This document shows positions 1,956 to 10,448 of a DNA stretch of 11,606 nt, in pieces; the stretch's first letter is position 1, and each line of letters starts with the position of its first letter. Position numbers and translations under genes: made by a program. The DNA comes from an uncultured archaeon (GTDB lineage Archaea > Thermoplasmatota > Penumbrarchaeia > JASLWR01). The stretch covers positions 1 to 11,606 of the forward strand of contig CAYFHS010000040.1 of the NCBI GenBank assembly GCA_964342815.1. The letters run 5' to 3'. The notes beneath the pieces were generated by a model. That model worked only from the letters and a program-made list of their open reading frames with translations, had not been told where the DNA came from and did not search any database.

Positions 1956-2285
1956 ATGAAAGACAAGGAGAGAATATCCGTATCCGTGTATCCATCCCAG
2001 TTGGACATGCTCGACAGGGAACAGGACCGGAAAAAGATTTCCACAAGATCGAAGATGATCCGCATCATCTTCAGCGAGTATTTCAATATACACCAACCGG
2101 AAGAAGGAACTGAAAATCTAGTCATAAAAATCCCGGTTGGCTTGTTGGACCTGATGAGACAGTTGATCTATCGTGAGAATGAGAAAGGAAAAAGAAGCCC
2201 CATTTTCCTTCGCGAGGATGAAGTAATACTATATGCTTTACGGCTCCTTCTCATGGAACACTTTCCCCCTGAACGTAAACGCTGA
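1956..2285 (+). CDS. Ribbon-helix-helix (CopG/MetJ-like) DNA-binding protein, probably with two tandem RHH units
   Basis: ERISVSVY (alternating beta strand), then helix PSQLDMLDRE and helix TRSKMIRIIFSEYF. A second, similar unit follows: NLVIKIP-VGLLDLMRQLI...EDEVILYALRLLL. GGGGG lies upstream of the ATG. Confidence 0.75.
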   Translation: MKDKERISVSVYPSQLDMLDREQDRKKISTRSKMIRIIFSEYFNIHQPEEGTENLVIKIPVGLLDLMRQLIYRENEKGKRSPIFLREDEVILYALRLLLMEHFPPERKR

Positions 2286-2370
2286 ACCGGGATTGAAAGG
2301 GTGAAATCAAACCCGGATTCTGGCTGGATCGAAGACGCTTTATACCAATAAACCCGGAGGGAGGGTTTAA

Positions 2371-3447
2371 ATGAATATGAAAAACAAACAGGAGGTTAAC
2401 ACAGATATAATTGATGAAATGGAAGCAGCGGTCTTCTACGATTTCTTTGAGATCCATAGAAAGACCAGAATAAGCCTTGAAGATTTCATGCATGCGTGTG
2501 AGATCATGGGGCTCGCCAGTATACTGGCACAGAGATATCACCATGGGGCGGGATTATCGATCAATCGGTCGGCAAGATCTGTAAACAAATACTTTCTTGG
2601 CAAAAAGGAGAATGATCTTCTGAACATGGGAGTTGATCTTTCATCGGTGAAAATCGCACTCAGTGACGTACTCATCGCCTTGGACGGAGCGGGTGCCATA
2701 GTGAACGGGAAGATCACGAACGTAGGGTGTATGATCCTTGTATCAAAAAGAACGTGTGAAAAAGCATTGCGACGCCTGAATGAGAATCCTGACCCTGGGC
2801 TTTTTCGGAAAGAAACTTATCAGTTAACCGCTGGAGGTGCCCATACTAGGCATGGTTCTATGACTGCCTACTCAATGAAATGCCCCAATTCGGTAAATTT
2901 CGTCGTTTCCCACAAAGGCCGAGCCTGCATACTGGTAAAGGGAAAGGTCATAGGGCAGATCACCAGGATTGAGAGTATCGACGGTCCCGTATACATCGAG
3001 CCATATTCGGGTAATGGATTTCCCGGAGAGGAGAAAACGCAGTTAGTCAAAACTTTCTCACCACAGCTCCGAACAATAGTTGAGAAAGGATTCAAATCGG
3101 GGGATATCTTCATCGAGCAGTTGATAAAAGCCAGGGCGGACATCGCCTGGGACAAGAAACAAGGAATGTTGCACTATCTGAACAAATTCAGATGGGGACG
3201 TCAGCGGAAAATTTCGGATTATCCCGTATTCATTGAGTCCGACAAAGGCAAATGGAGAGAAGTCCTACGTAAGCTGCAGCAGACCAACACCGAGCGTATC
3301 AATTCCAGTGATTCTGATCTGAAGCATGAGATTAGATCCTTACGAGAAATTAAATTACGAAAGAATATCATGAAAGATAGTAGAAAATCAACGCAAACTC
3401 ATCTTGACAAGTTCTTCAAAATAATTGGGCGATTTAGATATTTTTAA
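2371..3447 (+). CDS. Diadenylate cyclase (DisA_N/DAC)-fold protein, divergent, with an unassigned C-terminal region and a PIP-box-like motif
   Basis: DAC motif order is preserved: helix LASILAQ + G-hydrophobic strand (HGAGLSI), LDGA (D105-G-A, nt 2683-2691), G-x-x-L-type strand (VGCMIL), TRHGS (R160-H161, canonical TRHRA), and VVS-x-x-G with terminal strands. GGAGGGAGG lies upstream. Confidence 0.72.
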   Translation: MNMKNKQEVNTDIIDEMEAAVFYDFFEIHRKTRISLEDFMHACEIMGLASILAQRYHHGAGLSINRSARSVNKYFLGKKENDLLNMGVDLSSVKIALSDVLIALDGAGAIVNGKITNVGCMILVSKRTCEKALRRLNENPDPGLFRKETYQLTAGGAHTRHGSMTAYSMKCPNSVNFVVSHKGRACILVKGKVIGQITRIESIDGPVYIEPYSGNGFPGEEKTQLVKTFSPQLRTIVEKGFKSGDIFIEQLIKARADIAWDKKQGMLHYLNKFRWGRQRKISDYPVFIESDKGKWREVLRKLQQTNTERINSSDSDLKHEIRSLREIKLRKNIMKDSRKSTQTHLDKFFKIIGRFRYF

Positions 3448-3471
3448 TTATCAATTGACAAATTCCTGATA

Positions 3472-3602
3472 GAATATATTTATCCTATTGGGAATATATT
3501 TTTTTTTATATTTATCCATTTATTTCTTTAAAAGGGATTTTCCCGCCCTCTAAAGTGAAATATATATTATTTTAGCAAAATGAGGAAGAATATATATTTA
3601 TC
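3472..3602. repeat. AT-rich short direct repeats upstream of the recombinase
   Basis: TATATTTATC at 3475, 3507 and 3593. GAATATAT at 3472, 3492 and 3588. Confidence 0.5.
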
Positions 3603-3632
3603 AGCATATTTCCTTTTTTTTACAAATATGAT

Positions 3633-3650
3633 GGAAAAGTATATATAAAA
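3633..3650 (+). promoter_or_regulatory. BRE + TATA of the recombinase gene
   Basis: GGAAAAG followed by TATATATAAA (3640-3649). AGGAG at 3701-3705 precedes ATG 3716. Confidence 0.6.
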
Positions 3651-3657
3651 AGGCAGT

Positions 3658-3717
3658 GTATCGGAAGGTATTGTTATAGGTATCGGCCTCGATACTCAAA
3701 AGGAGATGTTTCGATAT
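3658..3717. promoter_or_regulatory. 60-bp dyad-symmetric site (candidate recombination site or operator)
   Basis: Inner arms GTATCG (3680-3685) / CGATAC (3690-3695) and outer arms TATCG (3659-3663) / CGATA (3712-3716) share one centre, the CC at 3687-3688. Confidence 0.55.
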
Positions 3718-4516
3718 GGTCCCCGGTGAAAACGACGGTAATCAGTCTAATTCGAACAAAAAAGACAAAAAAATAGTAATTTATGCCCGCGTGTCTACCA
3801 AAGATCAGGAAAAAGAGGAAACTGCAAAGACCCAGATCGACCTTCTTACCCCTATCATCCAGAAAGAAGGATACGAACTTATTGATATAATAAAGGACGA
3901 GGATGTATCGGGAGACAGCGACCCGGAAAAACGACCTGGCTTTGCCAGAATACTCGATATGGCTCAGTCTGAAGAGATAAATGAAGTATGGGTGGCCAGC
4001 AGGGATAGGATTGCAAGAAACGTGGATCTCATGGGATTCATCCGGATCACCCTCAACAGGCTCGGAGTCACTGTAATGGCTCTCGACGATTCGAAAGAAA
4101 AATACCTCGATAAATTCAAGGATGTATTGTCGGAAATGGAGCTGGACAAGTACAGACAGAAGAGAATGGATGGGATCGAGCGAGCCAAGAGAGAGAAGAG
4201 AACCCTTCAGAGACCGCCCTTTGGTTATGCCAGTGTGGACAAAAAATTGGTGATTGATGAGACTAAAAGAGGAATAATAAGAGCACTATTCCGTGATTTC
4301 GACATACCCCTAATGTCGCTGAAGAAACTGGCTGATAAATACGATATGAGCCGATCCATGATACAACGTATACGCTCAAACCCCATTTATACTACTGGCG
4401 AAGTAAGATGGCAGGGGAAAGTTGTCTACAAGGTTGAACCGATCATATCTGAAGAGACCGGGGGGGGCGAGGAAACCGAAACCCCCGAAAATGGGGCACA
4501 ACAAACCCTCTTCTGA
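3716..4516 (+). CDS. Serine recombinase: catalytic domain plus Recombinase (PF07508-type) DNA-binding domain, no zinc ribbon, 266 aa
   Basis: IYARVST (catalytic Ser27), DVSG, RPGF, RDRIARN; then PFGY...IIRALF...SNPIYTTG...EPIISEE, the pattern of the large serine recombinase RD domain. Confidence 0.92.
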   Translation: MVPGENDGNQSNSNKKDKKIVIYARVSTKDQEKEETAKTQIDLLTPIIQKEGYELIDIIKDEDVSGDSDPEKRPGFARILDMAQSEEINEVWVASRDRIARNVDLMGFIRITLNRLGVTVMALDDSKEKYLDKFKDVLSEMELDKYRQKRMDGIERAKREKRTLQRPPFGYASVDKKLVIDETKRGIIRALFRDFDIPLMSLKKLADKYDMSRSMIQRIRSNPIYTTGEVRWQGKVVYKVEPIISEETGGGEETETPENGAQQTLF

Positions 4517-4532
4517 TTATTTCAAGTTGAGT

Positions 4533-4550
4533 AGGGAATTCCCTTAACTG
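4533..4550. repeat. Palindromic site AGGGAATTCCCT-TAACTG, with a near copy at 7534-7557
   Basis: Perfect 12-bp palindrome at 4533-4544. The same 7+11 nt recur at 7534-7540 and 7547-7557, separated by a 6-nt insertion. Confidence 0.45.
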
Positions 4551-4688
4551 AATCAAGACGAATGTCATTTAGTTTAATTTATTCTCCAAAGATTCTTAAC
4601 ACGGCCTTGGATCCCTGAAAATGCGTTGTTTATTCCCTTAGAAACTGAAGTTTTACTTAGGTATAACACAAATCAGAAATCTAAGGCG

Positions 4689-4732
4689 AACAGGGATTAT
4701 TAGTATCAACGATCCTGTTTTTTATTTTTTTT
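4689..4732 (+). terminator. Hairpin plus T-tract, possible terminator downstream of the recombinase
   Basis: AACAGG(G)AT...ATCCTGTT stem (4689-4719) runs into TTTTTATTTTTTTT. Confidence 0.4.
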
Positions 4733-4756
4733 ACGATTTTTTTGTTTCAATAAGCG

Positions 4757-4777
4757 AATCAATAGTTTCTATTGATT
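4757..4777. repeat. Perfect inverted repeat
   Basis: AATCAATAG-TTT-CTATTGATT (9-bp arms). Confidence 0.6.
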
Positions 4778-4949
4778 TTATAATTAATTTGTCTCAATCC
4801 ATTAATTTAATCAGAGATGTTGGCTAACTGCAAGCCGCCGCGTGAAGTAAAGCAGGTAAAATCAATAATAGTGAAATAATCCTTATTTGAGATTATGTAG
4901 TTCCATAGATTTAATCAATGTTTTATGCCACTCCAATGATTTATTTAAT

Positions 4950-5027
4950 GTTCGTTATTTATTACAATATGGGTTCAATACCCCGCAGCTTGCTGCGGAT
5001 GGGACCATATTGTAATGAATGAAGAAC
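4950..5027. repeat. Long stem-loop 1 with a REP-like apical hairpin
   Basis: ATTACAATATGG (4961-4972) / CCATATTGTAAT (5005-5016) form a perfect 12-bp stem, extendable with G-T pairs to 4950/5027. Apex CCGCAGC-TT-GCTGCGG (4983-4998). Confidence 0.7.
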
Positions 5028-5110
5028 CGTCTTGAAAATTGCCGTAATACCCTGCAGCTTGCTGCGAAGTGAGCAGAGCGAACGATGGGATCGGCAATTT
5101 TAGGTTCTTC
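5021..5110. repeat. Long stem-loop 2 with the same apical motif
   Basis: GAAGAACC (5021-5028) / GGTTCTTC (5103-5110) and AAAATTGCCG (5035-5044) / CGGCAATTTT (5092-5101). Core at 5046-5066 matches 4977-4997 at 20 of 21 nt. Confidence 0.7.
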
Positions 5111-5500
5111 AAATTTATTTCGAAGAAAAAGGTGATAAAAGACAGAAATCCTATTGATGACAGCAGGGGTCTGACAGGTTATCGGATCCACCCGAATTAT
5201 TGAGAGCATTATCAATTAAGCGTATAAACAAACAAATCCGTCGGATTATTTTTTCATTCAAAAAGGATATGTATAATTATATACTCGGAGATATCTCGTA
5301 AAAAAATTCTCGAAGCCAACTAATTGTGCGGAAAATTGCACAACCATTGGAACAATATTCTCACCTCTATGGGATAATATTCATCCACGGCATGAATTCC
5401 TGAAATAAGGAGATATTATACCTGAAAGAAAGGAGGAAAGGTATGTGTATAAACTATGCACAATCGAATATATATAGCTATTAAATCATTTTTACCGTGT

Positions 5501-5515
5501 GAAGTTTTTTATATA
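5501..5515 (+). promoter_or_regulatory. Candidate BRE/TATA for the acetoacetate-CoA ligase gene
   Basis: GAAG followed by TTTTTTATATA. An archaeal-type GGGTGA ribosome site lies at 5579-5584. Confidence 0.45.
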
Positions 5516-5589
5516 GCCTTAACAATATGCATGTGATCTGATAACCAATCATATGTTTTCGTTAAGAGAAAAATATACGGGTGAGTTAC

Positions 5590-7542
5590 ATGATGGAACA
5601 ACCGCTTTGGGCCCCGAGTGATGAGAGAATCGCACGGGCCAATATGACGCGTTTTATAAATTTTATCAGGGATTCCGGCCTTAATATACAAAACTATGAT
5701 GATCTCTACCAGTGGTCTGTTGACGACCGCCCTGGTTTCTGGGCCGCTCTATGGGACTTTTGTGAGATTAAGGCATCCCGCAGATATGATAAAATACTGG
5801 AGAATCCTGATGAGATGTTGGCATCGAAATGGTTTCCAGGAGCTAGATTGAACTATGCCGAGAATCTATTGCGTTTCCGAGACGACCGCAAAGCACTGAT
5901 TTTCAACGGTGAAGGTCGTACGGTAAAAGACATTAGTTATGGAGAGCTCTATGATGCTGTTGCCCGTCTGGCAAAAGCCTTGAGGGAATTCGGAATTGAA
6001 AAAGGTGATCGCATCGCCGGTTTCGTTCCGAATATGATAGAACCGGTGGTAGCAATGCTGGCAGCAGCCAGTATCGGAGCGATATGGTCGTCCTGTTCAC
6101 CGGATTTCGGTATTAAGGGAGTTCTGGACCGTTTCGGCCAGATCGAACCTCGTATTCTGTTTACCGCTGACGGGTATTTCTATAATGGGAAACCCTTCGA
6201 TTCTCTTGACCGTATTAATGGTATCCTTGAACATCTTCCATCAATAGAAAAGATAATCATAATCCCCTACCTGAAGGATAAACCGGATATTTCCTCCGTA
6301 TCTGATTCCATTCTATTCCATGATTTCCTATCAAATGAAAATGATCTCGAGATCGAATTCGCTCAACTCCCATTTGACCATCCACTTTATATTCTATATT
6401 CGTCCGGGACTACTGGGATTCCCAAATGCATGGTTCACGGAGCTGGGGGAACGCTGCTGCAGCATCTCAAGGAACTGGTACTCCACACCGACCTAAATTG
6501 TGAGGATAATATCTTTTACTTCAGTACATGCGGGTGGATGATGTGGAACTGGTTGGTCAGCTCTCTAGCGGTGGGAGCCACGGTTTTACTATTCGACGGC
6601 TCTCCGTTCTACCCGGACCCTGGAGTACTTTTCCGCTACGCGGAAGATGCTAAAATGACCGTGTTCGGTACAAGCGCAAAATATCTATCTGCTTTGGAAA
6701 AGACAGGGCTTAAACCAAACGAGAAATACGATCTAAGTTCTTTAAAATCAGTCCTTTCCACCGGATCACCCCTGTCGGTTGAAAGTTTCAAGTTCGTATA
6801 CAGGGATATAGAAAATGATCTCTGCCTGTCATCTATTTCCGGAGGTACGGATATGATTTCTTGTTTCGCCTTGGGAAATCCCATAGCCCCGGTATGGGCG
6901 GGAGAACTGCAAACAAGAGGGCTTGGTATGGATGTGGATGTGTTCGACGAATCGGGAAATTCAATAAGGAACAAGCAAGGCGAACTTGTATGTAAATCGT
7001 CGTTTCCCTCTCAACCCATTTACTTCTGGAACGATCCGGACGGAAATAAGTATAAAAATGCCTATTTCGAGGTATATGATAACGTGTGGCGGCACGGAGA
7101 TTACGTTGAGCTCACCGACCATAATGGGATGATAATATCAGGAAGGTCCGATGCCACATTAAATCCTGCAGGAGTAAGGATCGGGACTGCGGAGATATAC
7201 CGACAGGTGGAAGCAATGGATGAAATAATGGACAGCATTGCCACCGGGCAAAACTGGGAGGATGACGTGAGGGTCATCTTGTTCATAAAACTTAAAGAAG
7301 GTGTAAATCTAACTGAGGAGTTGGTAAAGAAGATCAAAACAACCATAAGAACAAACTGTACACCGAGGCACGTCCCAGCAAAGATCATACCCATCGTTGA
7401 CATACCATACACCATCAGCGGTAAAAAGGTCGAATTGGCCGTGAAGAAAATGATCGAGAATCGGCCGATATTGAACAGGGACGCTCTTAAAAACCCGGAA
7501 GCATTAGAGTTGTATAAGGAGATTCCGGAACTCAGGGAATGA
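5590..7542 (+). CDS. Acetoacetate-CoA ligase (acetoacetyl-CoA synthetase, ANL/AMP-forming family), about 650 aa
   Basis: PLW-P start, WFPGARLNYAENLL, GAIWSSCSPDFG, YILYSSGTTGIPKCMVHG, CGWMMWNWL, SISGGTD, WRHGD, GRSDATLNPAGVRIGTAEIY and SGKKVE are the acetoacetyl-CoA synthetase subfamily pattern. GTG 5581 lies within the ribosome site, so ATG 5590 or 5593 is preferred. Confidence 0.9.
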   Translation: MMEQPLWAPSDERIARANMTRFINFIRDSGLNIQNYDDLYQWSVDDRPGFWAALWDFCEIKASRRYDKILENPDEMLASKWFPGARLNYAENLLRFRDDRKALIFNGEGRTVKDISYGELYDAVARLAKALREFGIEKGDRIAGFVPNMIEPVVAMLAAASIGAIWSSCSPDFGIKGVLDRFGQIEPRILFTADGYFYNGKPFDSLDRINGILEHLPSIEKIIIIPYLKDKPDISSVSDSILFHDFLSNENDLEIEFAQLPFDHPLYILYSSGTTGIPKCMVHGAGGTLLQHLKELVLHTDLNCEDNIFYFSTCGWMMWNWLVSSLAVGATVLLFDGSPFYPDPGVLFRYAEDAKMTVFGTSAKYLSALEKTGLKPNEKYDLSSLKSVLSTGSPLSVESFKFVYRDIENDLCLSSISGGTDMISCFALGNPIAPVWAGELQTRGLGMDVDVFDESGNSIRNKQGELVCKSSFPSQPIYFWNDPDGNKYKNAYFEVYDNVWRHGDYVELTDHNGMIISGRSDATLNPAGVRIGTAEIYRQVEAMDEIMDSIATGQNWEDDVRVILFIKLKEGVNLTEELVKKIKTTIRTNCTPRHVPAKIIPIVDIPYTISGKKVELAVKKMIENRPILNRDALKNPEALELYKEIPELRE

Positions 7543-7579: not shown

Positions 7580-8965
7580 TCAGCTAAAAAAATCCAGTGT
7601 GCAATTAATGAACATCAGGTTTGCAAATACAGCAGCACCGATCAATAGAGAAATAAAACCCAGGCCCTCTATGAAGTGTAAAAGAGCAATAAGAATTAGA
7701 AGCAGGCTGATAACGGTCCAATCCAGAAGCTTATACTCTCTCTTCTTCACCTTTTCCGAGTCCCTGACATCACATCCGGTTCTTTTTAGTGATATTTCAT
7801 CAATAAAATAGATCGGAATTGACAGTCTGTAGAAAGTGACCATCAAAATACCAAAGATCATGGATTCTGATATTACATACAGACCAAATTTCATCAATGC
7901 ATAGGCGATGAGCAACCCGGCCATGGATTGAAATATCCCCCAATGTCGATTTGATGTCAATAAATTCATCACCGAATTTTTATTTCGCTCAGAGACTTTC
8001 CGGGATTTACCCTTCCAACGCACAAACCGTCCCCATAGCATGGTGATACCGATTCCCAATATGACATAGAAAAAGATAGAGATTAATAAAAAAAACATGT
8101 TTCGTAACCTGATCAATTGGACGAAGAAACTGGAAGAAAATACAATTAACATCAGAATATAGAAAAAATTGAACATCTTCAGATCAATATACTCGCCCTT
8201 CTCAAATATCTTAAGGTAAGACCAAAGATTGATCCCAAGGAACATAATAATAAAAACGCTAAGCAGATACATTGAATGCTCGTCATGCACTCCAAAGGGA
8301 TTATCTATCACTTCCGCTCTCCCCTGAATCCACTCGTATCTTACTGGTTTCATACGTTCCTGGTCCACTTTCAAGTTGTGGTCACCCATGGTAATGTACC
8401 CTGAACCGTACTCAAGCTCCGAAATGCTGTTGTAAGTAAGTTTGGACTCGAACAGAAATGGCTGGATGAGTTTCTCTACCTCGAGCTCGTAAGAGTTAGA
8501 CACGGAAAATATGTATATTGAATTAGCCCCGTAAATCCCGATTTCCGGTACATCGATCTTGACCGAATCAATATCATTGACCTTGGCTTGGGTGAGGTTG
8601 AATTCAATATAGATAAGCACCCGATGGCAAATCCTTATGGAGTCTTTCCCATTTGGTTCAAAAACAATAACATCCCCCCAGAATCCACACGACTTCCTTC
8701 CTTGCTTCATCCCTTCTCTTACAGTAACAATGCTCTCTTTGCTTTCATATGGTGTCACAAAGAGACTGTCCCCTTGATCTATAACACCGAATCTAGCACC
8801 ACCATGGGTCATAGATAAACCTCTGACAGGTGCCACGTGTTCATCATCGGTTACCTCGAAGTAGACCAGACACCCGAGACAGAGGTTTAATATAAGCATA
8901 AGACAAACGAATTTGAGAATCTTTCGATCATTAACGGAATTCCCTTGTTCCATTATGCATCCCAT
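7580..8965 (-). CDS. S26 (Sec11-like, Ser-His) signal peptidase domain fused to a C-terminal domain of about 7 membrane segments
   Basis: N-terminal hydrophobic helix, GLSM (Ser51), IDQGD, GDVIVF, ICHRV (His114), GYITMGDHN, DQ and PVRYEWIQG, then about seven hydrophobic segments after residue 230. The start may be ATG 8953. Confidence 0.75.
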   Translation of the reverse strand: MGCIMEQGNSVNDRKILKFVCLMLILNLCLGCLVYFEVTDDEHVAPVRGLSMTHGGARFGVIDQGDSLFVTPYESKESIVTVREGMKQGRKSCGFWGDVIVFEPNGKDSIRICHRVLIYIEFNLTQAKVNDIDSVKIDVPEIGIYGANSIYIFSVSNSYELEVEKLIQPFLFESKLTYNSISELEYGSGYITMGDHNLKVDQERMKPVRYEWIQGRAEVIDNPFGVHDEHSMYLLSVFIIMFLGINLWSYLKIFEKGEYIDLKMFNFFYILMLIVFSSSFFVQLIRLRNMFFLLISIFFYVILGIGITMLWGRFVRWKGKSRKVSERNKNSVMNLLTSNRHWGIFQSMAGLLIAYALMKFGLYVISESMIFGILMVTFYRLSIPIYFIDEISLKRTGCDVRDSEKVKKREYKLLDWTVISLLLILIALLHFIEGLGFISLLIGAAVFANLMFINCTLDFFS

Positions 8966-9106: not shown

Positions 9107-9167
9107 ATAGAAATATAATGAAAAGGATTACACAGCTATCCGAAAAAAGGTGTTCCCCGGAGATACC

Positions 9168-10448
9168 ATGTACCTTCAGATATTATCAATCGTTCTTTTC
9201 GCTTCGAAAGGTGGTACTAAATCAAAGAAAATAGGGCGGGAGAAAGGTTTAGGGAGCCACGAAGATGCAGCTACGGATGAGATCGATAGCAATGATCCTT
9301 TCTCTTTTTCCTTTCTTGATGAATATCCTTCGATAATTGAGGATTATGCCAAAAATAAACCGGGTGAAGAAGACGGTGAGAATACAGAGTCCATGAGCGA
9401 TACGCAGGATAATATGGATGACATGATTTTGGTGGAAATGAAACAGCTATATGGAGATCTCGAGAACCTGCTTACCAAATCCCTTCATAAATCCGAAATA
9501 AAGGATGATGTTCACGTCCATGAAGAAGGTGTCATTGGATTGCCTGTTACCCCGGAAAAAGAGATCGAAACATCTCCTGGAGTAATTAATCTCCAGGTTA
9601 CTCCTCCAAAAAACCTTGAGGATATGGGGGAAAAGACAATCGAACTGCCCTCAAAATCGGTCCCTACCACCCCGGTTGCGGATATTCAGAAGGTAATCGA
9701 ACTTCCCACTAAACCCCAAGCGGAAGATCCGGAACCAAAAAGTGTAATACCTCTCTCCCAGCCTAAGGACGGGATATCCGAGGCCACGGAAATTCAGATA
9801 CTGGCGGATATTGGAAAAAGAATATCGGAGGAAGAATCAATATCTGACATGATGTCCAAAAGAGGTTTGTTGAAAAGGCCATTTAATGAAAAGTCATCTA
9901 GTCCCACGGCAGCCATAGCGGAAAATGAATTGAAAAGACTCCAGGAATTGCAGAGGAAACAGCGGGAAGCCATAAAAAAACGGTTGCAGGAGAGAAAGAA
10001 AGGTGACGTTTCCTGGAACCAACTGGTGGAAGTGAAGAAAAAAAGGCTGGAAAACCTTAATGAACTAAAGAAAAAACGTAAAAAAAGGCGCAGTCGGTTT
10101 CGTAAGGAAAAGCTACATAAATTAAAGGAACGCGAACGGGAAAAAATGAAGAAATTAAAGGATAATGGTGTCCGGGAAACCAGAACCACTGGTTTCGCTA
10201 AAAGGGAGTTTACAGAAGTAAGATCACCCTCTGAAATCACTAGACACGAGGAGGACAACACCTTTACGTCTGAGTACGTTCAGCCTTCATGGAAAAAAAT
10301 GGCAGTACCTCCAAAAGAAACAATAAGATCGGCACCAGTAGTTCCCGGAGTGACCTTTGCCGCTATAAAACGATGCCCCGATTGCGGGGGATTTATTAAT
10401 CTTAGTGTGTCCAATAAATGCTATTCATGCGGAAAAACTTTCCCATAG
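9168..10448 (+). CDS. Hypothetical low-complexity protein with a C-terminal zinc ribbon, about 426 aa
   Basis: Long ORF with an acidic N-terminal part, Pro-containing repeats, a K/R-rich helical block and CPDC-x11-CYSC at 10374-10430. ATG 9168 follows GGAGA; GTG 9150 is an alternative start. Confidence 0.75.
   Translation: MYLQILSIVLFASKGGTKSKKIGREKGLGSHEDAATDEIDSNDPFSFSFLDEYPSIIEDYAKNKPGEEDGENTESMSDTQDNMDDMILVEMKQLYGDLENLLTKSLHKSEIKDDVHVHEEGVIGLPVTPEKEIETSPGVINLQVTPPKNLEDMGEKTIELPSKSVPTTPVADIQKVIELPTKPQAEDPEPKSVIPLSQPKDGISEATEIQILADIGKRISEEESISDMMSKRGLLKRPFNEKSSSPTAAIAENELKRLQELQRKQREAIKKRLQERKKGDVSWNQLVEVKKKRLENLNELKKKRKKRRSRFRKEKLHKLKEREREKMKKLKDNGVRETRTTGFAKREFTEVRSPSEITRHEEDNTFTSEYVQPSWKKMAVPPKETIRSAPVVPGVTFAAIKRCPDCGGFINLSVSNKCYSCGKTFP

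Follow-up and report, generated by a model that had tools for sequence, protein, structure and literature searches.

Three adjacent, co-oriented genes in the genome of an uncultured archaeon raise the question of whether they form a mobile island or a signaling module, possibly one involved in defense. The genes are located on the 11,606-nucleotide contig CAYFHS010000040.1 (Thermoplasmatota; Penumbrarchaeia), which was analyzed in its entirety (hereafter, the window; unless indicated otherwise, coordinates refer to it, followed by the strand). The first gene (1956–2285, +; 109 aa, P0001) encodes a ribbon-helix-helix (RHH) protein, the second one, denoted P2 here (2371–3447, +; 358 aa, P0002), a protein resembling diadenylate cyclases (DAC), and the third one (3716–4516, +; 266 aa, P0003), a serine recombinase (SR). 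The trio is flanked on one side by the divergently transcribed genes of a small, 71-aa ferredoxin (fdx; 1442–1657, −) and geranylgeranyl reductase (GGR; 252–1538, −) and on the other side by the acetoacetate-CoA ligase gene (AACS; 5581–7542, +). The original prediction, which was made from the sequence of the window, interpreted the three genes between fdx-GGR and a metabolic gene as a compact mobile or domesticated unit, or as a signaling or defense module. The open reading frames (ORFs), their flanks, and the gene identities proposed there were borne out, that of SR by a Pfam match, that of RHH via an orthologue, and that of P2 by structure and an in-register profile match. The trio is, however, a stable part of the chromosome in a single archaeal family rather than a mobile island. 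The explanation we favor, and to which we give a somewhat better than even chance, is that an RHH-controlled DAC tethered to the sliding clamp, PCNA, took over from the canonical cyclase, DacZ, whereas the adjacent SR is an independent gene retained by the host.

The neighborhood of the trio is conserved throughout the family. In all seven contexts compared, namely, a second genome of the window's genus (G001, with G000 denoting the window's own genome), genomes of two other genera (G003 and G002), and the loci L043–L045 and L047, the fdx-GGR pair is divergent from an RHH gene that directly precedes P2, and across these contexts, the P2 identity ranges from 80% down to about 26%. The same order, RHH before P2, is seen on the short contig L046; P0015, the P2 that has diverged furthest, follows an RHH gene that is divergent from a ferredoxin gene, and P0014 follows an RHH gene on a short contig. 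The complete order, that is, GGR-fdx divergent from RHH-P2-SR and, after about 1 kb, AACS, is kept in G001, in G003, and in metagenomic contigs with a 50%-identical P2, and in G002, RHH-P2 adjoins fdx-GGR and is followed by a UbiD gene. The original prediction suggested a search for an empty site; none was found within the family, where RHH-P2 occupies the same place in every genome and contig examined, and the outgroup families lack the trio altogether. The fdx-GGR pairing is kept across the phylum, and in seven outgroup genomes in which it is conserved, none of RHH, P2, SR, AACS, or DacZ is adjacent to it, so that these genes appear to be a family-level novelty.

The possibility that P2 is a fast-evolved positional orthologue of DacZ was considered and rejected because DacZ is not located beside fdx-GGR in these seven genomes. 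As a separate observation, in the outgroup genome G006, DacZ lies about 500 bp from a GGR paralogue that is 27% identical to the window GGR (L051; G006:C33 7424–9675), an adjacency that echoes that of DAC and GGR in the window and that we judge to be coincidental. No att-like direct or inverted repeats and no tRNA were found around the trio, and there is no compositional difference between the trio coding regions and the flanks. Thus, with RHH-P2 syntenically fixed beside fdx-GGR family-wide, SR an independent orthologue, and neither repeats nor a tRNA in the vicinity, the compact mobile unit did not stand up.

The protein that matters most for the interpretation of this locus is P2, which consists of an N-terminal DAC-fold domain, a poorly modeled helical region without a family match, and a C-terminal PCNA-interacting protein (PIP) box. 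The P2 family is tiny: a word-indexed search of 5.8 billion proteins identified 8 sequences, and a profile search of 1.84 billion identified 7 cluster representatives. The AlphaFold2 model of full-length P2 was unusable (pLDDT 42.5), and that of residues 18–232, built from the family sequences alone with no templates, reached a pLDDT of 85.7 and a pTM of 0.86. When this core was compared to the PDB using Foldseek, the top 70 matches (E ≤ 0.001; E from 6e-6, prob 1.00) were all DACs, with CdaM, DacM, CdaA, DacA, and DisA among the matches listed. The VIA-align comparison with 40 DAC entries yielded Z scores of 10.2–12.7 and rmsd values of 2.6–3.4 Å over 131–140 residues, the next unrelated fold scoring only Z 2.4. 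Furthermore, hhalign aligned P2 residues 101–220 to a profile of 17 diverse DAC proteins from the same archaeal class with a 91% probability (E 9e-7) and with the DGA, TRH, and S..G motifs in register.

Within the DAC-fold core (2440–3006, +; approximately residues 24–212), these motifs correspond to D105-G106-A107 (2683–2691, +), T159-R160-H161 (2845–2853, +), and a third block, S180..G183-R184. The members of the family are mutually only 25–30% identical, yet the motif blocks are invariant: D105, G106, H158, T159, R160, H161, S180, G183, and R184 are the same in all 14 P2 sequences, and the third residue of DGA is either A or G. Ahead of TRH, P2 contains an inserted loop of about 23 residues that includes a 16-residue low-confidence stretch. 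In DACs, ligands are bound through the DGA and RHR motifs (PMC8573169). Judging from the model, P2 is a genuine, albeit very divergent, DAC-fold protein; the conserved motifs suggest that it is catalytically active, and by analogy with PanS of the Panoptoo system (bioRxiv 10.64898/2026.08.10.743927), its product could differ from cyclic di-AMP (c-di-AMP).

The phyletic pattern of P2 points to the role that such an enzyme might play. Each of the four family genomes contains one P2 gene, none was found in the 37 other genomes of the class or phylum, and the pattern of the RHH gene is the same (four of four and none of 37). The Pfam DAC model, in contrast, has no match in the four family genomes, which are 89–93% complete, compared with 1–2 genes in each of 32 of the 33 genomes from eight sister families of the class. 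This distribution is exactly complementary to that of P2, and accordingly, we read P2 as a replacement cyclase. The genomes of another Thermoplasmatota family, f29, encode SR and a canonical DAC but no P2. The c-di-AMP receptor family PF06153 is missing in all 41 genomes of the class and phylum and is therefore uninformative as to whether the signaling persists. In many bacteria and haloarchaea, c-di-AMP is an 'essential poison', and to our knowledge, the coupling of its synthesis to the state of the cell in archaea is largely unknown. In H. volcanii, dacZ is essential and is lethal when overexpressed (PMC6741144), and the region upstream of this gene is bound by the RHH regulator CdrS (PMC8406309). 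Given this precedent, the dose sensitivity of dacZ, and the complementary distribution of the DACs, we read RHH-P2 as a putative tightly controlled replacement cyclase.

The tail of P2 probably docks on the DNA sliding clamp, as suggested by modeling. The motif QTHLDKFF (3394–3417, +; residues 342–349 of 358) is located about 10 residues before the end of the protein and fits the canonical PIP box form, Qxxhxxaa (PMC4858679). In an alignment of family members, Q342 is invariant and T343 is at least 90% conserved, and 11 of the 14 members have a motif of the Qxx[LIF]xx[F][FLIS] type. The predicted complex of P2 residues 315–358 with PCNA from the same genome scored 0.88, against 0.08 for the best control, a mark that was reached by 58 of 80 solved complexes and by 2 of 110 mismatched pairs; because PIP-PCNA complexes are abundant among solved structures, this result shows likeness rather than binding. 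The contact agreement between runs was at least 83%, and the partner pLDDT was at least 54. In the model, P2 residues 338–352 contact PCNA residues 39–46, 117–124, 219–220, and 237–244, which make up the classical PIP pocket, with contacts to the IDCL, the C-terminus, and the hydrophobic pocket. An ORF scan of the window's genome for C-terminal motifs showed that the RFC large subunit ends in QISLDSFF (G000:C7:124243–126009), the EndoQ homologue in QKSLFEF (G000:C8:45306–46565; 5zb8, E 6e-80), and an SRAP/HMCES-family protein in QSRLF (G000:C26:46295–47026), so that the clamp-client motifs of this genome resemble that of P2. In the literature, we came across neither a nucleotide cyclase nor a serine recombinase described as a PCNA client, nor any report that links DACs with PCNA or PIP boxes.

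Several observations weigh against P2 being a clamp-tethered replacement cyclase. P2 has no match in Pfam (to E 10), NCBIfam, PADLOC, PHROGs, or, by profile, the PDB sequences; in particular, it fails the gathering score of the Pfam DAC model, PF02457, and does not match it even at E 10. Against a low-diversity profile of six closely related DacZ sequences, the hhalign probability was only 1.5%. The last Arg of the RHR motif is replaced by G, T, or I next to the invariant T159-R160-H161, and P2 does not contain the Glu of the bacterial VSEETG stretch, which leaves its catalytic activity and product putative. Neither a c-di-AMP receptor nor a phosphodiesterase was identified, and no DAC of any kind was found in three other Thermoplasmatota families, so that simple loss of c-di-AMP signaling is possible in this family too, with P2 doing something else. 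All the genomes compared are metagenome-assembled genomes (MAGs), in which an absence means 'not found'. With regard to the clamp, a canonical PIP box is missing in the deepest-branching members, P0012 and P0014, and only a weak form, QTSLTEFP, is left in P0015; the P2 of G002 is among the members without a canonical PIP box.

An alternative is that P2 is not an enzyme but a clamp-bound nucleotide sensor or an adaptor in repair or recombination, in a family that has lost c-di-AMP signaling. Apart from the DAC-less families, this possibility draws on the extreme divergence of P2 from all DAC hidden Markov models, the reduction of RHR to TRH[G/T/I], the low-confidence stretch in the loop ahead of TRH, and the recombinase next door. 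However, the ATP-binding motifs (DG, TRH, and S..GR) are exactly the positions that stay invariant at 25–30% identity, as would be expected of a working active site, and the sister-family DacZ sequences above the Pfam cut-off do without the final RHR Arg as well, reading G-RH-L there. We therefore regard a non-catalytic P2 as quite unlikely.

The idea that P2 is under the control of the upstream gene builds on the properties of the RHH protein and its leader. The window RHH falls short of the Pfam cut-off for RHH_1 (PF01402; E 0.032, 14.6 bits vs 20.5), whereas the 51%-identical orthologue in G002 exceeds it (23.0 bits), and the orthologues match RHH_1 with E-values of 7.5e-5 and 0.0029. The protein contains an N-terminal ribbon-helix-helix, in which the β-strand motif ERISVS is kept in 7 RHH sequences, and, by eye, a second RHH-like β-α-α repeat. 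Across six lineages, the best conserved parts of the fdx/RHH intergenic region are a TATA-like box and a GTAATAC..GTAAT element, which together delineate a putative RHH promoter and leader (1825–1896, +) comprising the TATA-like TTTATAAA (1825–1832, +) and the direct repeat GTAAT-N6-GTAAT (1881–1896, +). The RHH protein probably acts on this repeat, a candidate operator in its own leader.

Toxin-antitoxin (TA) pairs, too, typically have a small RHH gene immediately before a larger one; in such a pair, RHH would be the antitoxin or repressor and the DAC-fold P2 a toxin that arrests growth, excess c-di-AMP being poisonous, and DAC overexpression is indeed lethal in H. volcanii (PMC6741144). However, TA loci are normally patchy and multi-copy, whereas this pair is present in one copy per genome, with strict vertical inheritance and fixed synteny; P2 is a 358-aa protein with a conserved PIP box; RHH and P2 lie 85 nt apart, and the gap may contain a separate promoter; and there is no PADLOC match. 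We give very little credence to a TA-like pair.

The SR belongs to a different evolutionary unit. This small serine recombinase matches the Pfam Resolvase domain (PF00239; E 4.2e-21), and the residues Y23, R25, S27, Q31, R96, D97, R98, and R101 are invariant in 19 sequences, so that, from the conserved positions, the enzyme looks catalytically intact. The C-terminal part starts with RPPFGY and continues through a helix-turn-helix (HTH)-like stretch and an acidic linker to the terminal QQTLF (4499–4513, +). The SR matches the PHROG 95 integrase (E 1.4e-36), and among solved structures, it is closest to catalytic domains from large serine recombinases (TP901-1 integrase and 3g13, a putative conjugative-transposon recombinase). 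Nevertheless, it differs from the large serine recombinases, which are defined by PF07508 with a zinc-ribbon/coiled-coil and a size above 400 aa: it has no PF07508 or zinc-ribbon match and, at 266 aa, no room for a coiled-coil, and the NCBIfam XisF and Ccr models score far under their cut-offs. A terminal Q.TLF-COOH is present in 9 of the 11 family-level SR orthologues and is missing in the copy in G002. Published short archaeal PIPs include AKTLF of UDG and QKSFF of the ligase (PMC4858679), and by resemblance to these, the QxTLF terminus would be a short PIP-like end, which makes clamp docking of the SR plausible. The suggestion of the original prediction that both enzymes dock on the clamp has thus gained ground, through the modeling of the P2 PIP box into the pocket of its own PCNA and through this resemblance. 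As a side observation, the terminus of the SRAP protein mentioned above shares the Q-x-x-L-F-COOH form with SR.

The SR is single-copy in all four family genomes, which share 71–81% identity in this protein. Between genera, its identity is 76%, compared with 72% for AACS, 58% for GGR, and 51% for P2, that is, it evolves like a housekeeping gene. In G002, the orthologue (71% identical) follows TPR genes on a different contig, unlinked from RHH-P2. Among the approximately 50 sampled Thermoplasmatota families, close relatives were found in one other family only, f29 (62–63% identical), and relatives in Heimdallarchaeia are about 50% identical; in both lineages, SR is located among housekeeping genes, with no RHH or DAC-like neighbor. 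The original prediction suggested a search for co-occurrence of the three families; in these other lineages, SR occurs without RHH or P2.

The SR promoter and leader (3640–3715, +) are conserved in the four lineages with the leader covered, including the relocated copy in G002, and consist of a TATA box (3640–3651, +), GTATCGG (3658–3664, +), the dyad GTATCG-GCCT-CGATAC (3680–3695, +), and a ribosome site, AAGGAGAT (3700–3707, +). The promoter and the leader of about 75 nt with the dyad move along with SR, even in G002. For a second copy of the dyad in the same genome, there are only chance-level short matches. The dyad is a candidate for an autoregulation or recombination site. Archaeal serine recombinases 'were never fully investigated' (PMC8371274).

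Outside the family, the surroundings of SR homologues offer some additional observations. In two Heimdallarchaeia lineages (L060, 5104–5936; L064, 5119–5933), the SR homologue is preceded by the same two small ORFs, of 122–127 and 149 aa, with different outer flanks, and may form a conserved three-gene module with them. These ORFs were examined as equivalents of RHH and DAC and rejected, being helical proteins without DAC motifs. In a Euryarchaeota MAG (L063), the SR homologue (62% identical) has a divergent 81-aa neighbor (5399–5644, −) that is RHH-like by eye, and the locus sits among ELP3, NMD3, and MCM genes.

The distribution of SR bears on the origin of the locus. Conceivably, RHH, P2, and SR arrived together at the base of the family as an integrated element that SR inserted beside fdx-GGR and that later became immobile and domesticated. 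Under such a scenario, one would account for the outgroups that keep fdx-GGR without RHH, P2, SR, AACS, or DacZ next to it, for the lack of detectable relatives of RHH and P2 outside the family, for the AT-rich spacers, and for the patchy spread of SR across phyla (f1, f29, and, at about 50% identity, Heimdallarchaeia), a pattern typical of past horizontal transfer. The absence of att-like repeats, of a tRNA, and of a compositional difference in the coding regions speaks against it, and SR is unlinked from RHH-P2 in G002 and elsewhere never occurs with RHH or DAC, so that the three genes need not have arrived together. We consider such a fossil element unlikely; it concerns the origin of the genes and is compatible with the present-day function that we favor. 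Of the 'domesticated' unit in the original prediction, the mobile part falls away, but the word may still apply to SR and, at the base of the family, to an ancient acquisition.

The role in defense can be addressed more directly. As the original prediction stated, no effector, replication, or transfer gene is recognized in the window; there is no defense effector-type domain, PADLOC has no match on the other window ORFs, and its sole match is a weak one, to a homing endonuclease, in the C-terminal region of SR (E 0.0039). Anti-phage systems in which DAC domains act are known (bioRxiv 10.64898/2026.08.10.743927), and the genes at this locus are compact, lineage-specific, fast-evolving, and adjacent to a recombinase, as could be the case for a Panoptoo- or CBASS-like module in which the DAC would signal to an effector, RHH would be the regulator, and SR the mobility gene. 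However, no partner of the S2TM-β, SLATT, patatin, or nuclease type is encoded in the window. Far from being patchy, P2 is found throughout the family as a single, syntenic copy, and it seems to replace the housekeeping DAC instead of adding to it. A defense module accordingly appears highly improbable, and this part of the original prediction is not upheld.

Returning to the clamp-tethered replacement cyclase, we propose that the locus consists of two independent, vertically inherited chromosomal units, RHH-P2 and SR. P2 would dock on PCNA in vivo via its PIP box and, as a head-to-head DAC dimer, make c-di-AMP or a related dinucleotide from ATP, which would couple the output of the second messenger to DNA loaded with the clamp and hence to replication or repair. 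RHH would bind the GTAAT repeats in its own leader and hold the level of the dose-sensitive P2 tightly set, and P2 would functionally replace the canonical DacZ-type cyclase. The SR would be retained for a host function, and the QxTLF terminus may also bring it to the clamp. A bolder version, which we regard as doubtful albeit worth entertaining, is that P2 is an archaeal functional analogue of DisA on PCNA, with an output that reports the status of the fork or of repair, and that SR is a second clamp client in the same pathway.

If this is correct, P2 would be the first clamp-tethered second-messenger synthase, and SR, the first clamp-tethered serine recombinase. Through P2, the replisome and a second messenger may be directly linked in archaea, a connection that can be tested and for which DisA would be the bacterial parallel, reached by a different route. 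P2 is invisible to sequence models, which implies that Pfam-based surveys undercount DACs. The SR represents a conserved, apparently host-retained serine recombinase family that is common to Thermoplasmatota and Heimdallarchaeia. There is also a useful negative lesson, namely, that an accessory-looking trio with a recombinase and AT-rich flanks need not be an island.

The remaining features of the window are the spacers and the outer genes. The P2/SR spacer (3448–3715) and the non-coding SR/AACS spacer (4517–5580) are AT-rich, with a GC content of 0.27 and 0.34, respectively. The original prediction was right in this respect, and its description of the spacers as rich in dyads holds only weakly: many short imperfect inverted repeats can be listed in the window, but among inverted and direct repeats between the two spacers flanking SR, compared in five lineages, none is consistently above the shuffled controls. 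At about 1 kb, the SR/AACS spacer is longer than is usual in a compact archaeal genome. The length is kept (940–1064 bp across four lineages, with a stretch of at least 621 bp behind the relocated SR in G002), and the sequence is poorly conserved, with a mean column identity of 57%. No conserved ORF was found in this spacer, and Rfam and tRNA scans of the window gave no match. A short box, CTTAACTnAATCAA, occurs 27–79 nt past the SR stop in four lineages and is absent in G002; otherwise, the motif search of the spacer yielded only AT-rich near-matches. Twin hairpins (4950–5070) share a 21-nt core (4977–4997 and 5046–5066) and are not conserved in G001 and G003.

On the far side of fdx, the GGR ORF as listed, with a GTG start at 1538, overlaps the ferredoxin ORF by about 97 nt; the Pfam and NCBIfam matches of GGR begin near residue 35, and the true start is therefore probably further downstream. 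Beyond AACS, the window encodes two proteins without a family that are conserved in G001 (73–75% identity for both): a 461-aa multi-pass membrane protein (7580–8965, −) and a 432-aa, highly charged low-complexity protein with a C-terminal CxxC...CxxC zinc-ribbon-like motif (9150–10448, +).

Comparison with known systems helps to place the proteins of this locus. Like the DACs of Panoptoo and other defense systems, P2 belongs to none of the classical classes, CdaA, DisA, and CdaS, and is a minimal, divergent enzyme with the DAC fold, but it has neither a partner effector nor a defense-island context, and its vertical inheritance is fixed. The SR shares the Resolvase domain, with all key residues, with small and large serine recombinases, although no element and no att, res, or hix sites were identified for it. 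The RPPFGY and HTH-like region resembles the start of the 'recombinase domain' of the large serine integrases (TP901-1, XisF, and Ccr), whereas SR, at 266 aa, single-copy and strongly conserved, resides among housekeeping genes in several archaeal lineages. As in other archaeal PCNA clients (RFC-L, EndoQ, FEN1, ligase, and UDG), the PIP box of P2 is near the C-terminus, after a variable linker; the clamp binding is modeled here, for P2 only.

Among the cyclases themselves, DacZ/CdaZ has the same fold as P2 and the same relaxed motifs, DGA, G/T-RH-x, and S-x-x-G; the two are mutually exclusive in genomes, and the link to an RHH regulator has a precedent in CdrS-dacZ (PMC8406309). DacZ, however, combines an N-terminal PK_C-like domain with a C-terminal DAC (PMC6741144), whereas in P2, the DAC is N-terminal, with the insertion of about 23 residues before TRH and a 125-aa C-terminal extension that carries the PIP box, and the Pfam DAC model finds every DacZ but not P2. 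DisA differs from P2 in that P2 is archaeal, confined to one family, and without a sequence-level Pfam DAC match, and in that P2 has no helix-hairpin-helix (HhH) DNA-binding domain (no Pfam match) and a PIP box instead. Yet DisA is the best structural match to the P2 DAC domain (Z 12.7, rmsd 2.7 Å, 132 residues), and P2 resembles it in layout, with a DAC domain followed by a helical region and a C-terminal, putatively DNA-targeting module.

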